Source: Treponema sp.
Lineage (GTDB): Bacteria > Spirochaetota > Spirochaetia > Treponematales > Treponemataceae
DNA: 64,000 nucleotides
NCBI GenBank assembly: GCA_024402655.1
Contig: JAKSTH010000002.1
Span: 795 to 64,794 of the forward strand
Direction of reading: 5' to 3'
A program made the position numbers and the translations under genes. This document shows, in pieces, positions 2,130-40,754 of the stretch (position 1 is the first letter of the stretch; each line of letters begins with the position of its first letter). Below the pieces are notes generated by a model, which worked only from the letters and a program-made list of their open reading frames with translations, was not told the origin of the DNA and ran no database searches.

Positions 2130-4139
2130 CTATTTCTTTTCTACTCCTCTTTTTTTAATTGAAGAAATAGTAAAGTTTATGTTCTTTTCAGTTTCCTTTT
2201 CACTTTCAATTTCCACATCCCAAATAAGTGTAGAAACAGCAGTCATACCAATATTTTCTTTACTGTAATTTGTTGTAGGACGTTTAAAAGTTATAGGATT
2301 ATAATAATATGAACAAATTTCATTTGGCTCATATGCAAAGCTTAATCCATTTTCCAGGTCTGCAATTCTTGCAAAATCAACATTATTAAGCTTATTCTTT
2401 TTATTAAGTTTTTGAGTAGAAACCTCTGGATCCAAAACCATTCGTTCAGATTTATTCAATACTTCTACAATAAAATAGCTAAGTTTTTCTTTATCAAAAT
2501 TTACATTATTAAAGTTTGATTCAACTGCAAATTTTGCACGTAAAGTCTTATTACTTTTATTTTTAAGAATATACTGAACATTCATTCCGTCAGAATTTAT
2601 AATATATTTTTTTGTAAGTTGAACTTCCTGTTTTGTAGGCATAAACATGGCAGAAGCAGAAAGCAGGATTTCTCTTTTCTTTGTGTTAAATTTTACTTCT
2701 GTATAATGTATTTTAGAAAATACACCTTCTTTTGGAACTTCTCCACTTATATATGAATCGAACTGTTCATTAGAAAACAGGAAATCTACAAAAATACCTC
2801 GGCCATAATCATCTTCCTGGCCATCCCATTCTATAATGCGGTTTAAGTTGTCTGCATAGTTTCCACTATTTTTTATTGGCTCTAAATCTAAAATTGAACC
2901 GCCAATTAAACTGATGTATGCAAAGTAATTTTGCATTCTACAAACATATTCAAAAAGTCCGTCGCCATCATAATCAAAAGCAGTAATTGTTTCTTTAAAT
3001 GCACTGCCTTCTCTTAAAATTTTTTCAGCATCCATAAGATTTTTAAATGCTTTCTGACGATATTTTGAATTATTAAAAATGCTTTTATTTGTACACAACA
3101 AACCAAGTCCATTCTGAGCTTCCCAAAGTTTTTCTCTGGCAGCTTTTTTTCGCATCTTGTCCACTTTTGACTGATTAACAAGCATGCTTACATACATAAT
3201 TCTGTTATATAAAGAATGACTTGGATTATATATCTGCATAAAATCATAAGCATTTAAAGCTTTTAATTCTTTTCCTTTTGAACCAAAAATAGAAAGTTCT
3301 GTTCCTTCTGCAATTCTATGGTTCATGCCACAGGAAATATATCCAGGTATTTTTGTTGTATTAATTTTTCTGTAATTGTCTGGTGTAGAAAAAATGATTC
3401 GTGTATCTGTATTTTCTTTTAAATATGAAGCAAGTTTTTCAAACCATTTTACACTGTTCAGTTCTTTCATGGTTGAATGAGAAAGATTAATTGTTACAAC
3501 TCTACTTGGCTGCATCTGAAGATATTTATCTTTCTTCTCAACTTTTTCAACAGCTTTTACAATTTTAGTAATAAAATCTTTTGCAGATTCATCTTTTTCA
3601 GGTGCCAGATTTTCATAAGAAGGGAAAATTTCAACAGATTTTCCAAGATCAGTCATAATAATTGGAAGGAATTTCTGTTTATCACTTCCAATAATTTGTG
3701 AATCCAAAAAAGTATATTCAACACCACAAGTCTGTAAATTATTTACTAAAGAAGCGTCCCAGCAATCTGCAAAAAGAGTAATTCCTCTAGGTCTTTTACC
3801 AAGAGTTTGTCTTAATTCAGCAGAAAGCATATCAATTTGACCATTACGGTCTACAGGGAAAATTAATGGCAATATAGGTCCGTAGTATCCGCCACCTAAA
3901 ACTTCCAGCTGTTTTCTTTCAATCATCTCTTTTAAAATTGTTATTAATTCTTTTTTACGGTTTTTAAAATAAGAAAGCTGCAAACCAGAAAAAGAAAGAG
4001 AAAATTCAAAAGAAGGATTATTATAGAGAAATTTTACTATTGGTTTATAAACTGTCTGATAATCTTCTTCAAGAATTTTTGAAGATTCAAGACTATATGA
4101 TACAGACTTTATGCTAAAGCAAACGTATATTGAATTCAT
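2130..4139 (-). CDS. GH57/DUF1926 4-alpha-glucanotransferase-like protein; catalytic motifs degenerate
   Basis: QLEVLGGGYYGPIL, LGKRPRGI, DYDGDGLFE and a C-terminal beta-sandwich; no HxHQP, WLxE or DGEKFG motifs. Confidence 0.75.
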   Translation of the reverse strand: MNSIYVCFSIKSVSYSLESSKILEEDYQTVYKPIVKFLYNNPSFEFSLSFSGLQLSYFKNRKKELITILKEMIERKQLEVLGGGYYGPILPLIFPVDRNGQIDMLSAELRQTLGKRPRGITLFADCWDASLVNNLQTCGVEYTFLDSQIIGSDKQKFLPIIMTDLGKSVEIFPSYENLAPEKDESAKDFITKIVKAVEKVEKKDKYLQMQPSRVVTINLSHSTMKELNSVKWFEKLASYLKENTDTRIIFSTPDNYRKINTTKIPGYISCGMNHRIAEGTELSIFGSKGKELKALNAYDFMQIYNPSHSLYNRIMYVSMLVNQSKVDKMRKKAAREKLWEAQNGLGLLCTNKSIFNNSKYRQKAFKNLMDAEKILREGSAFKETITAFDYDGDGLFEYVCRMQNYFAYISLIGGSILDLEPIKNSGNYADNLNRIIEWDGQEDDYGRGIFVDFLFSNEQFDSYISGEVPKEGVFSKIHYTEVKFNTKKREILLSASAMFMPTKQEVQLTKKYIINSDGMNVQYILKNKSNKTLRAKFAVESNFNNVNFDKEKLSYFIVEVLNKSERMVLDPEVSTQKLNKKNKLNNVDFARIADLENGLSFAYEPNEICSYYYNPITFKRPTTNYSKENIGMTAVSTLIWDVEIESEKETEKNINFTISSIKKRGVEKK

Positions 4140-35981: not shown

Positions 35982-36851
35982 TTAAGCAACATTCTTTGCC
36001 TGTTCACGAATATTTTCCAATGAATCTTTGGCACAAATAACCATTGCACCAACTTCACTAAACTGATTTTTACTGCCAATTGTATTTATTTCTCTGTTCA
36101 TTTCCTGACAAATAAAATCCAGTTTTTTACCAGGTGTAGGATTATTTTTTAATTCCTCTTTCATAGCTTCTATATGACTATGCAGTCTTACAATTTCTTC
36201 ATTGATTGTATATTTTACAACCATTGCAGCTGTTTCTGTCATAATTCGGTTTTCATCAACCTTATCCTGTAATAATTCATTAAACTTAGCAGTAATCTGT
36301 TCTTTAAATGCATTTTCCATTTTTGGCTGCCATTCTTTAAAAAAGGCTGCACATTCTGAAAGTTTAGAAAGTTTTTCTTCTAAATCTTTTTTCATATTTT
36401 CGCCTTCTCTTAAAGCATCTGCCATGTATTTTTCTAAAGCAGAATTAAAAACAGGTTCAATCATAGTTTTATATTTTTCTGCATCATTTGTTTTATTAGA
36501 AACAAGAACACCAGGCTGATTAAGAATAAAATCTAAAGGAGCTCCATTTGTATTTAATCCAGTTGCATCAATTACTTTTTTAACCGCATTTCCATAAGCT
36601 TTAGCTAAATTTTCATCAACAAAAATTTCTACATTAGACTGAAGTTCTTTTAATCTGATATTTACATCAATTTTTCCACGAACTATTTTTTCCGAAATTT
36701 TTGTTCGAAAATAACTTTCTACAGGATTTAAAAAAGAAGGCATATTAATTGATAAATCAAGAAATCGTGAATTAACAGATTTAATTTCTACACTAATAAC
36801 AGCGGCTTCCGAAGTCACTTCCTGATACGCATAACCTGTCATTGAAATCAT
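35982..36851 (-). CDS. yicC: YicC/YloC family endoribonuclease
   Basis: SMTGY, KSVNSRFLD, RGKI, EEIVRL, GKKLDFICQEMNREINTIGSK; start moved to 36851. Confidence 0.93.
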   Translation of the reverse strand: MISMTGYAYQEVTSEAAVISVEIKSVNSRFLDLSINMPSFLNPVESYFRTKISEKIVRGKIDVNIRLKELQSNVEIFVDENLAKAYGNAVKKVIDATGLNTNGAPLDFILNQPGVLVSNKTNDAEKYKTMIEPVFNSALEKYMADALREGENMKKDLEEKLSKLSECAAFFKEWQPKMENAFKEQITAKFNELLQDKVDENRIMTETAAMVVKYTINEEIVRLHSHIEAMKEELKNNPTPGKKLDFICQEMNREINTIGSKNQFSEVGAMVICAKDSLENIREQAKNVA

Positions 36852-36861
36852 AATATTTTCC

Positions 36862-38367
36862 TTAGTAATTAGATAAAATTGCTTTTCCAAGTTTCCAGTT
36901 ATCACCGGCACCCATTGTTACAAGTAAAATTCCATCTGGATATTCTTTTGATAATGGTTTTTCAATTTCTGATTTTACGAAATCTACTGCATCCATTGCA
37001 TCTTCATAATAAACCACTGTGTTTTTATTTCCACAATGTTTTACAGTTTCATCGAATAAAGTTTTACCAGTAATATTAAAATCTGCAGCATTTTCTCTTG
37101 CAGAAGAATAGATTTTATTCAAAATAATTACATCGGCACTTTCAGTAGAAGCCGCAAATTCTTTTAAAAGTGCCTGAGTTCTACTGTATGTATGGCTCAT
37201 AAAATCTACAATAATTTTTCTTCCTTTGTAAAATTCTTTAAATCCTTCCAAAGTTGTTTTTACTGCAGTAGGATGATGTCCGTAATCATCAATTACAAGA
37301 ACATTATTTCCAGATTTAGAAGTGAATCTACCAACAATTTCACTTCTTCTTTTACCGCCAGAAAATTTTTCTAAACCAGCAGCAATCTGTTTTTCATAAT
37401 CCTTTGGATTTTTACCGAACTGTTCCAATAATTTACAAACCAGAGCAACAGCAGCAACTGCATCCATAACTTCGTGTTTACCAGGAACACAAAGTGCTAA
37501 ATCTGAGTCAAATAAAGAAATTTTAAACTTGTTTTTTTCATTTTCAACTTTTCCAAAAGTAAGTTTAAATTCTCCTTCAGCATTTTCACCGTAAGGAATA
37601 AGTTTTAGATCGGCTCTTTTTGATTTTGCTATTCCTGCAGTTTCCACAGCCCCTTTATCATCGCAACAATAAATAAGTTCTCCATTTTGTGGAAGTTTAC
37701 AAATATAATCAACAAATGCATCTCTAATAGATTCATAAGTTGGATAATAATCTTCGTGATCTGGTTCTACAGAAGTAAGTATGATTTTTTGTGGGCAAAA
37801 ACTCATAAAATGTCTCTGATATTCACAAGTTTCTGCTACAAAGATTTTTTCATCATTTTTTGCAGTTTCAATAAGTTTTGAAGTATAAGTACATGTTCCA
37901 CCAAAACTATTTATAATACTTCCTGCAAGAACCTGAGAAGGTAAATCAATTTCTTTTAAGATTGTTCCTGTAAGTCCTGTTGTAGAAGTTTTTCCATGAA
38001 CACCACAAATACCACAAGAATATGATCTGCTTGAATAAGAACCAAGAGCCTGTGTATAAAGAAGGCAAGGAATATTTTTTGAAACAGCAGCAATTAATTC
38101 AGGATTTTTATCTAATTTATAAGCAGATGAATAAACTACATAATCAACATCATCTGTAATATTTTTTGCATCAAATAATGTAGGTTTAATATTTAATTTT
38201 TCAAGAATTTCGTCAGTGTAAAATCTTTCTTCAACATCTGAACCTGTAATAATAGCGCCATTGTGAAAAAGAATTTCAACCAGGGCTGCCATACCAGTAC
38301 CTTTAATACCAACAAAGTGAATATGAACTCCAGAAATATTTTCTGGTAACTGTAAATTTTCTATCAT
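36862..38367 (-). CDS. murC: UDP-N-acetylmuramate--L-alanine ligase
   Basis: HFVGIKGTGM, GVHGKTSTT, DDYGHHP, HTYSRT, MGAGD. Confidence 0.96.
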   Translation of the reverse strand: MIENLQLPENISGVHIHFVGIKGTGMAALVEILFHNGAIITGSDVEERFYTDEILEKLNIKPTLFDAKNITDDVDYVVYSSAYKLDKNPELIAAVSKNIPCLLYTQALGSYSSRSYSCGICGVHGKTSTTGLTGTILKEIDLPSQVLAGSIINSFGGTCTYTSKLIETAKNDEKIFVAETCEYQRHFMSFCPQKIILTSVEPDHEDYYPTYESIRDAFVDYICKLPQNGELIYCCDDKGAVETAGIAKSKRADLKLIPYGENAEGEFKLTFGKVENEKNKFKISLFDSDLALCVPGKHEVMDAVAAVALVCKLLEQFGKNPKDYEKQIAAGLEKFSGGKRRSEIVGRFTSKSGNNVLVIDDYGHHPTAVKTTLEGFKEFYKGRKIIVDFMSHTYSRTQALLKEFAASTESADVIILNKIYSSARENAADFNITGKTLFDETVKHCGNKNTVVYYEDAMDAVDFVKSEIEKPLSKEYPDGILLVTMGAGDNWKLGKAILSNY

Positions 38368-38407: not shown

Positions 38408-38442
38408 AAAAAAAGACCGCAATGCAACGCATCACGGCCTTT
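38408..38442 (-). terminator. Terminator of the flgF-flgG-flgJ unit
   Basis: AAAGGCCGTGATGC-GTT-GCATTGCGGTC-U7. Confidence 0.85.
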
Positions 38443-38515
38443 AGATAGATGTAAACTAATCTTTGAACAGACTCAAAGCTTTTAACGAACTTCGTTCGTT
38501 CTCCTTATTGGAGGT
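38408..38515 (-). ncRNA. Candidate structured sRNA or 3' UTR element downstream of flgJ
   Basis: Three short hairpins plus a terminator; TATAAT at 38526-38521; complementary to the flgF 5' UTR. Confidence 0.5.
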
Positions 38516-38544
38516 AGGATATTATATTTCAACACTATGGTTGC

Positions 38545-39066
38545 TTATACCAAACTTAAATAGATTTGATCGGCTAAACCAAATCCGGCTGTTTTTGTCA
38601 TATTTTCGGCATACTGATCATAAAGCATGTCTTCATACATTTTTTTGCCGAAATCATCTTCTTTAGTTTTCATAACAGTGTTTCTCATAGAAGAAAGCAT
38701 CTGTTTTACAAAGAAACCTTCAAGTTCAAGTGCTTTTTCATATAAAGTACTTGTTTTATCAATAGTTTTTGTCTGAACGTGAGGATTAGCCTGATTTACA
38801 GCGGCACCCTGAGCTTTTGCAGTTTTATCATTTTCTGAAGTAAAATAACCTGCATAACCTTGTGTGTATTCACCATTCAATCTTCCGTCAACATTAAGCT
38901 GACTGGAAGCAACAGTTCCTTTTCCATCATCCTGGCTCTTAAGTAATTTTACCATTTCATCGAATTTTGAAGTCTGTGCATTTTCTTTTGCAATAGAAAA
39001 AGCTGCATCTCCAGTTGTAATTCCGCTGTATGTATTTGTATATAATCCTACGTTCATTTTATTCAC
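38545..39066 (-). CDS. flgJ: FlgJ-like rod-binding protein (no muramidase domain)
   Basis: LYEKALELEGFFVKQMLSSMRNTV, YEDMLYDQYA, GFGLADQIY. Confidence 0.82.
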   Translation of the reverse strand: MNKMNVGLYTNTYSGITTGDAAFSIAKENAQTSKFDEMVKLLKSQDDGKGTVASSQLNVDGRLNGEYTQGYAGYFTSENDKTAKAQGAAVNQANPHVQTKTIDKTSTLYEKALELEGFFVKQMLSSMRNTVMKTKEDDFGKKMYEDMLYDQYAENMTKTAGFGLADQIYLSLV

Positions 39067-39086
39067 CTGCTATTAACAGTTATATT

Positions 39087-39881
39087 TTATCTCTTTAACT
39101 GTACTGCTGTAGAAAGCATATTATCAGAAGTTTGAATTGCTTTAGAGTTGAATTCATAAGCTCTCTGAGCAACAATCATCTGTACCATTTCGTTTACAAC
39201 AGAAACGTTACTCATTTCAAGGAATTTGTGACGTGTATCACCAAATCCGTCAAAACCTGGACGTCCGGCAATTGCTTCACCAGATGCATTTGTTACCTTG
39301 AATAAGTTATCTCCTTCTGCCTGTAAACCAACAGGGTTTGGAAATCTATAAAGTTCAATCTGACCAACATCAACAGGATCGTTTGAACCATTAACTTTTA
39401 CACTTACTTTACCAGTCTGTGTTACATTAAGAGTTGTAACATCATATCCTTCAGGAAGAATAATTTCTGGCATAAATCTTAAACCGTTACTGTTTACAAG
39501 CTGACCATTAGAGTCAATCTTAAAAGAACCGTCACGAGTATAAGCATATGAACCATCATACTGCATTACGCGGAAGAAACCTTCACCAACGATTGCAATA
39601 TCAGTGTCTACACCAGTATTTTGTAAACTACCCTGATTCATAATTCTCTGAGTAGCAGCAACTTTAACACCAGTACCCTGCTGAATACCAACAGGAGTTA
39701 CTGTATCTTCAGTTGCAGGAGTACCAGCCAATTTTAAGTTCTGGTACATTAAATCTTCAAATTCAACTCTCTGCTGTTTATAACCAGTTGTATTTACATT
39801 TGAAAGGTTATTCGAAATTGCATCTATATTTGACTGCTGACCGTTCATACCAGTTGCTGCAGTCCAAAGTGATCTTACCAT
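39087..39881 (-). CDS. flgG: Flagellar distal rod protein
   Basis: SLWTAATGM, NNLSNVNTTGYK, FEDLMYQ, YTRDGSF, LEMSNV, QRAYEFNSK. Confidence 0.95.
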   Translation of the reverse strand: MVRSLWTAATGMNGQQSNIDAISNNLSNVNTTGYKQQRVEFEDLMYQNLKLAGTPATEDTVTPVGIQQGTGVKVAATQRIMNQGSLQNTGVDTDIAIVGEGFFRVMQYDGSYAYTRDGSFKIDSNGQLVNSNGLRFMPEIILPEGYDVTTLNVTQTGKVSVKVNGSNDPVDVGQIELYRFPNPVGLQAEGDNLFKVTNASGEAIAGRPGFDGFGDTRHKFLEMSNVSVVNEMVQMIVAQRAYEFNSKAIQTSDNMLSTAVQLKR

Positions 39882-39898
39882 TTACTTACCTCTCTTCC

Positions 39899-40690
39899 TT
39901 ATTTAGAAACAACTTTTGTCCAAAGTGTACTTACCATAGAATCTTCAGACTGAATTGATTTTTGATTTGCTTCATAAGCACGGTTTACTTCAATCATCTG
40001 AACCATTTCATTAACAACATTTACATTTGAAGTTTCTGTATATCCCTGAACAAATCTTGGGCGTTCATCACCTTCTGCAATATGCGCAGGACCAGAAATT
40101 TCATTTGCTTTATAAAAGCTGTTTCCCATTTTTTCAAGGTATCTTTCATTATCAAAACGAACTACCTGAAAACGGTCTACTTCAACACCATCTTCTGTAA
40201 GAATAATTCCATCCTGATTAACATGAAAGCGATCATTTTCAAGATAGATTGGACCATTTTCGCCTAAAACAGGATATCCATCTTTTGTTTCAAGAATGCC
40301 TTCTTTTCCAATAAAGAAGTTACCGTTTCTTGTATAACGTTCACCATAAGGTGTATCTACTACATAAAAACCTTCATTACCTAAAGCAATGTCAGTTTTT
40401 GTATTTGTCAATTTAAATGAACCCTGAGAAAAATCGGTATAATTTTCATTAATTTCAATACCAAGTCCCAGTGTACCAATAATAGGCTGCACATCAGCTG
40501 AACCGTCAGGAACAGGATATACGCCATCGAAGTTTGTACGTCTGATTAATAATTCTGAAAAAGATTTACTTACTGTAATATCCTTTTTATAACCAGCTGT
40601 ATCAACGTTTGCCAAGTTGTTAGATATTGCATCTAATCTGTACTGTTGTGCATTCATACCAGAAGCACCAGTATACCAGCCACGAATCAT
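39899..40690 (-). CDS. flgF: Flagellar rod protein FlgF (FlgG paralogue)
   Basis: NNLANVDTAGYK, YTRNGNF, ETSNVN, RAYEANQK; directly upstream of flgG. Confidence 0.85.
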   Translation of the reverse strand: MIRGWYTGASGMNAQQYRLDAISNNLANVDTAGYKKDITVSKSFSELLIRRTNFDGVYPVPDGSADVQPIIGTLGLGIEINENYTDFSQGSFKLTNTKTDIALGNEGFYVVDTPYGERYTRNGNFFIGKEGILETKDGYPVLGENGPIYLENDRFHVNQDGIILTEDGVEVDRFQVVRFDNERYLEKMGNSFYKANEISGPAHIAEGDERPRFVQGYTETSNVNVVNEMVQMIEVNRAYEANQKSIQSEDSMVSTLWTKVVSK

Positions 40691-40727
40691 AGCTCCTCCA
40701 AAATATTTTTATTTACATCTATCTTCT

Positions 40728-40754
40728 TTATCGGAGGTATATAAATTTTGTTTA
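40728..40754 (-). promoter_or_regulatory. Sigma28 (FliA) promoter of flgF-flgG-flgJ
   Basis: TAAA-N15-TCCGATAA versus consensus TAAA-N15-GCCGATAA. Confidence 0.82.

Follow-up and report, generated by a model that had tools for sequence, protein, structure and literature searches.

In a Treponema sp., the 3' end of the flagellar rod operon flgFGJ encodes a candidate small RNA (sRNA) with a seed that is complementary to the predicted first nucleotides of two mRNAs, that of its own operon and that of the other rod operon, flgB-flgC-fliE-fliF. Sequence comparisons establish that the element is conserved, that it is complementary to and covaries with both leaders, and that the element and its target sites have been lost together. 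It is very likely that this RNA-RNA pairing is functional, and we consider it probable, on the same comparative grounds, that the RNA is a repressor sRNA processed from the 3' UTR and acting on both rod operons. The original prediction, made from the sequence alone, had proposed a two-site feedback sRNA with a seed and an anti-Shine-Dalgarno (anti-SD) segment directed at flgF; this reading holds up, in that the complementarity is conserved, covaries and exceeds that of shuffled sequences, with repression as the predicted consequence. The second target, flgB, was missed there and is new in the present analysis. Positions given without a locus handle refer to the window, that is, the whole stretch of 64,000 nucleotides that was analysed.

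The flgFGJ operon and its 3' element

All features described here lie on the minus strand. The operon consists of flgF (rod protein, 39899..40690; TIGR02490 over cut-off), flgG (distal rod protein, 39087..39881; NF009456 and TIGR02488 over cut-off) and a flgJ-like gene for a rod-cap protein (38545..39066), which has the Rod-binding domain only (PF10135 over cut-off) and matches the FlgJ models weakly. These genes are followed by murC (36862..38367; TIGR01082), which a terminator separates from the operon, and glgC is divergent. If the next gene (35982-36911) is given its longest start, it shares 50 nt (36862-36911) with the murC frame; the true start of that gene probably lies further downstream.

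The promoter of flgFGJ (40728..40754) is assigned to the sigma28 type from its sequence (TAAA at 40754-40751 and TCCGATAA at 40735-40728) and from its conservation, the consensus being kept across the genus. For comparison, the mapped -10 element of T. denticola flaB2 is CCGATAA (PMC9481697). The genome has a gene for FliA, which scores over cut-off, so that the parent transcript belongs to the sigma28 type at the sequence level; CsrA and RNase Y are present as well. Both rod operons appear, from their sequences, to be driven by sigma28 rather than to belong to an early class.

The flgB genes of the genus offer a calibration of the transcription start. In 43 of 88 of them, the ATG stands exactly 9 nt past the CCGA.. 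hexamer, a spacing that reads as that of leaderless starts. Since this spacing calibrates the promoter, +1 is predicted at about A40720 for flgF and at the A of AGAUG for flgB. Leaderless-looking flgB genes under a sigma28-type promoter are seen in about half of the genus (L261-L289, L383-L411).

Downstream of flgJ, the 3' UTR contains the candidate sRNA (38408..38544), which scores 58 bits with a covariance model (46-row alignment) and is the sole strong copy in the genome. Its anti-SD sequence, CCUCCAA, lies within hairpin 1 (38501..38514), about 45 nt upstream of the usual position in the clade; hairpins 2 and 3 (38461..38500) intervene, and these are looped out of the predicted duplex. The seed, AGUUUACAUCU (38447..38457), is predicted to form 10 bp with +1..+10 of flgF and 11 bp with +1..+11 of flgB. 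It is followed by the intrinsic terminator (38408..38442), the C(GUU)G loop of which (38429-38425) is rare: of the 227 terminator-like hairpins of this genome, 1 has it.

A sequence check found every motif that the original prediction had named, each in its place, and the 13-mer on which it was built occurs only twice in the 2.57-Mb genome, at 38455-38443 and, as the complement, at 40724-40712. Several of these motifs carry less weight than was assumed. The three 5' hairpins were treated as the core of the RNA, yet they are not conserved in the clade. The seed, described as unpaired, is mostly open across the clade (mean unpaired probability 0.83) but only partly so in this strain (0.43 when the whole 3' UTR is folded). 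The TATAAT (38526-38521) is present without a -35 element and is not conserved in relatives.

Two candidate interpretations were rejected at this point. A sigma70 promoter of the RNA's own was set aside because the TATAAT lacks a -35 element and is unconserved, and because the RNA of relatives can start right at the flgJ stop; processing of the 3' UTR, which had been offered as an option, is the better fit. The form of hairpins 2 and 3 is not conserved, and a genomic repeat was rejected as their origin because each of them is unique in the genome.

Searches against Rfam 15 returned no family at gathering score, and the two sub-threshold chance matches both fall within coding sequence. No strong paralogous copy was found in this genome or in five other genomes examined. 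Two RNA runs contained 14-19% of the sampled words, in contigs that are mostly of other strains and carry no end or strand information.

Conservation and distribution

A search of 151 genomes of the genus detected FlgF in 141, and loci were collected from those genomes (80) and from named contigs (80), the two sets partly overlapping. Among named species, Treponema bryantii is the nearest. The RNA is conserved 3' of flgJ in 48 non-identical loci of the T. bryantii clade, which is a group of rumen spiral bacteria, and is found in the cultured T. bryantii strains NK4A124 and XBD1002.

In this clade, the element consists of a C/U-rich anti-SD segment, about 10 U/A-rich bases, the GUUUACAUC seed and the terminator. 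UUUACAU is invariant in the 46 alignment rows, for which the mean column identity is 52%. In the terminator, 92% of the aligned cells are paired, 11 of 12 pairs show compensatory changes, and the C-G pair that closes the loop is invariant. The conserved part comprises only about 80 nt and may abut the flgJ stop.

The covariance model finds one strong copy per genome, and it also finds five elements outside the training set, all of them directly after flgJ. In a family-wide search, strong matches were confined to the genus, and the weak ones elsewhere were other terminators that do not follow flgJ; thus, among the genomes searched outside the genus, no element was found after flgJ. A nested subclade without the RNA is also without both the flgF and the flgB seeds, and a search of these genomes (80-99% complete) with the model gave no copy at another site. 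On a tree of FlgF and FlgG, the distribution requires two changes, i.e., one clade with one nested loss, or about one gain and one loss.

The RNA keeps its place before the terminator even where other genes have been inserted past flgJ. In one subclade, flgJ and the RNA are separated by a lipoprotein-like gene of about 180 aa (L034, about 2600-3100; also L031, L042, L044 and L047). In two species (L045, 2601-2671; L136, 6258-6328), the element is immediately preceded by a tRNA-Gly(CCC) gene, which in another (L053, 2698-2769) comes just past the terminator of the element.

These arrangements bear on readings in which the RNA is never released. Pairing in cis only, between the two ends of one flgFGJ mRNA, had been offered as an alternative in the original prediction; it is disfavoured because the covarying flgB target is on a separate transcript and because, in some species, tRNA-Gly stands between flgJ and the element. 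In a wider version, there is no free sRNA, and the intact flgFGJ mRNA is circularised by pairing of its two ends, its 3' end also pairing with the flgB mRNA. Such an arrangement would agree with the lack of a conserved promoter or cleavage motif among those sought and with a conserved part short enough to abut the flgJ stop, but maturation of the tRNA would sever the element in L045 and L136, and pairing with flgB is intermolecular in any case; we regard it as improbable. Together, the covariation with flgB and the tRNA and gene insertions before the RNA point to a trans-acting sRNA derived from the 3' UTR, and the tRNA insertion would fit, indirectly, with the accumulation of a discrete processed RNA.

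Predicted pairing with the two rod-operon leaders

In the flgF leader, the seed target (AGAUGUAAAU, 40711..40720) occupies what is predicted to be the extreme 5' end. The complementary sequence is present in all 48 scorable loci that bear the element and in none of 48 element-free loci, although these are not independent cases, since the tree holds only about one gain and one loss. The original prediction had placed a 13-nt match at the start of the transcript. Its complement does lie at the predicted +1, but with +1 at about A40720 only 9 Watson-Crick pairs and one G-U pair, about 10 nt in all, fall within the mRNA, and four bases of the 13-mer are probably untranscribed. Provided that the calibrated +1 of 40720 holds, the RNA would meet the very first nucleotides of the flgF mRNA.

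The second pairing site is the SD region of flgF (40695..40701). It is paired in the co-fold of this strain and in those of 39 of 46 relatives, and the SD of flgB in 24 of 25, counts that are without a control; minimum free energy (MFE) co-folds pair SD-like sequence easily. A comparison with controls is available for the RNA side: an anti-SD-like 4-mer occurs 6-26 nt upstream of the seed in 35 of 39 relatives, as against 29 of 220 control terminators. The anti-SD is often predicted to be partly sequestered in a hairpin.

The other target gene, flgB, heads flgB-flgC-fliE-fliF, the second sigma28 rod operon, on another contig, and its leader opens with the same seed. It was identified from translations; Pfam gave no match for it. 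When 85 sigma28-like promoters of the genome are ranked by seed pairing, flgF is first and flgB second; over 2143 start regions flgF is again first, as the original prediction would have it, and flgB fifth. A scan of unfolded energies with the whole 81-nt RNA was uninformative (flgF rank 17, flgB rank 359). Across 87 genomes, 29 have both the RNA and the flgB seed, 55 have neither and 3 have the seed only; in one of these three the RNA is cut by a contig end, and in the other two the match is an SD-type motif outside the clade. In G018, which carries one of the out-of-sample elements, the RNA pairs over the flgB start codon, and the seed itself lies over the SD or start region of flgB in G018, G073, G025 and G112.

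Pairing energies were calculated with the duplex and co-fold programs of ViennaRNA. Predicted two-site co-folds from +1 amount to -15.5 kcal/mol for flgF and -20.3 kcal/mol for flgB, net of monomer folding. Cognate duplexes are clearly stronger than non-cognate ones for flgF (z -5.3) and flgB (z -6.5), whereas control RBSs from the same genomes show no cognate preference (flgG z -1.7, flgJ -1.3, flgC +0.4). With disjoint swaps between nearest pairs, the cognate partner wins 6:2 and 7:2, and the controls are about even.

The possibility that such matches arise by chance in A/T-rich sequence was examined with dinucleotide shuffles. A complement to the 9-mer alone appears in 3.7% of shuffles, and the relatives are not independent of one another, both of which would speak for chance. 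However, the 13-nt complement claimed at the outset is reached in only 2 of 3000 shuffles, and both targets are matched together in 2 of 3000; an invariant 7-mer in so divergent an alignment and control RBSs without cognate preference also argue against chance, which is already largely refuted and which we consider hardly credible.

Covariation is seen at the flanks of the seed. The flank columns s-2/l+2 are paired in 39 of 44 cases for flgF (27.9 in shuffles) and in 23 of 25 for flgB (14.8 in shuffles). Where a C stands directly 3' of the seed, at least one leader has the matching G in 11 of 13 cases; where a U stands there, this is so in 0 of 10. A-to-G changes in the leaders retain G-U pairs, and other changes in the core fit bulged registers. 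The covariation anticipated for relatives is thus present for both leaders, but phylogenetically independent contrasts number only 2-3 on supported branches and, although almost never opposite in direction, do not reach significance in a sign test.

These details also bear on a reading without RNA-RNA pairing. In this case, GATGTAAA would be a protein site, either a DNA operator or an RNA site like the GGAUGU of CsrA, found at the two promoters and in inverted form ahead of the terminator. In favour of this are a core that hardly varies among the three sites, a CsrA gene in the genome and the occurrence of GGATGTCA as SD context outside the clade. A protein site would leave unexplained the G-U-tolerant changes, the bulged registers, the species-specific extensions of 15-17 bp and the anti-SD segment, and we take this reading to be very unlikely.

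In loci outside the clade, GGAUGUCA frequently forms the SD context (flgF of L066, L070 and L076; flgB of G133, G099, G141 and G024). This context resembles the CsrA consensus, and the seed site may have evolved from it. Inserts of up to about 100 nt, of which many are palindromic, are found between seed and SD in several flgF leaders (L031, L032, L042, L048, L058, L123, L127 and L158) and flgB leaders (G027, G123, G011 and G055), with neither seed nor SD displaced; some are alike across species, and they may be mobile.

Proposed mode of action and related elements

In the mechanism that we propose, a base-pairing sRNA would arise from the sigma28-driven flgFGJ transcript, at its 3' end and most likely by processing, for which RNase Y is a candidate. 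The U-rich seed would nucleate on +1 to +10 of the flgFGJ and flgB-flgC-fliE-fliF mRNAs, and the C/U-rich segment, which a hairpin often half conceals, would next cover the SD/start region and block translation of the first gene. We infer repression because nucleation at the 5' end is predicted to be followed by occlusion of the SD; the transcription start, the processing and the pairing in vivo are likewise predicted from sequence. Through such negative feedback, the proximal and the distal rod would be synthesised in step with each other. Hfq was not found in this genome (86% complete) or in five relatives (95-99% complete).

The same pairing might instead activate, by protecting the two rod mRNAs, at their 5' ends, against 5'-end-dependent decay. 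Precedents are RoxS-yflS and FasX-ska, which pair at the mRNA's extreme 5' end and stabilise the target, RoxS by blocking RNase J1 (PMC5419742). The seed target at the predicted +1 has the same geometry, and in some species 70-100 nt of hairpins part the seed from the SD. However, RoxS acts via RNase J1, and RNase J gave no match over cut-off in 9 genomes; in addition, unlike RoxS and FasX, the Treponema RNA is predicted to cover the SD as well, through a conserved second site, and in the four genomes mentioned above the seed itself lies over the flgB SD or start. Activation therefore seems unlikely.

As a repressor, the RNA is predicted, by analogy, to work like CarZ, which, together with OppZ, is a 3'-UTR-derived autoregulatory sRNA of Vibrio cholerae (PMC7398697). 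Like sRNAs of this type, the element shares the 3' UTR and intrinsic terminator of its operon and has conserved complementarity to the leader and RBS of that operon. The two differ in that CarZ needs Hfq and RNase E, whereas Hfq was not found in the Treponema genomes searched, and in that the Treponema RNA is predicted to seed at +1 and to have another, co-evolving operon as a second target. No sequence relationship to CarZ was found (Rfam).

Flagellar sRNAs of other bacteria offer partial parallels. Campylobacter jejuni is not known to have Hfq. Its flagellar sRNAs include CJnc230 (FlmE), which represses flgM and for which repression of its own operon is not reported, and CJnc170 (FlmR), which is not described as 3'-UTR-derived (PMC11187230). 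In E. coli, FliX and FlgO are sigma28-dependent sRNAs processed from flagellar 3' UTRs, and FliX lowers flagellar synthesis (PMC10578931). The Treponema RNA resembles them in stemming from the 3' UTR of a sigma28-type flagellar transcript, by processing that is predicted here. FliX and FlgO, which bind Hfq, originate from fliC and flgL, and flgF and flgG are unmentioned in that work (PMC10578931); the source of the Treponema RNA is the rod operon and its predicted targets are two rod leaders.

Searches of the open-access literature found neither a base-pairing flagellar sRNA in any spirochete nor a Treponema sRNA with defined targets, in line with the statement in the original prediction that no such element was known in spirochetes. 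If the repressor reading is true, an RNA layer would be added to the spirochete flagellar hierarchy, and CarZ-type autoregulation would come to include a circuit for the stoichiometry of two operons, in a lineage that yielded no Hfq in the searches. The shared terminator loop would then provide a handle on sRNA function without Hfq. The circuit is directly testable in cultured T. bryantii (NK4A124 and XBD1002).

A second candidate sRNA lies 3' of a DUF2259 gene in a sister clade (L336-L340, from G041, G081, G114, G017 and G060). It has a single-stranded tract with a match of 13-17 bp to the flgF SD and start codon of that clade, a partial match to the flgB leader of the same clade and a CGUUG-loop terminator, and the parent gene has a sigma28-type promoter. 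Past DUF2259, no such element was found in the genome under study or in 8 others. This RNA appears to be separate from the one linked to flgJ, which suggests that the rod feedback circuit arose twice or moved.

A broader interpretation is that treponemes have an Hfq-independent class of 3'-end regulators of their own, with the C(GUU)G loop read by a chaperone, and that rod-operon feedback was gained twice in the genus, after flgJ and, in the sister clade, after the DUF2259 gene; such an RNA may work without being processed, as the end of an mRNA, and gauge rod transcripts against each other via their first ten nucleotides. We put this forward tentatively and hold it to be rather doubtful.

CGUUG-loop terminators recur in the Treponemataceae, often behind C/U-rich, anti-SD-like tracts, and the loci concerned are possibly further sRNA families. 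For example, CAUCCUCCUC precedes such a terminator in each of three distant genomes (L349 in G138, L351 in G008 and L353 in G128), and further CGUUG-loop loci are L346-L348, L343-L345, L352, L432, L434 and L435.
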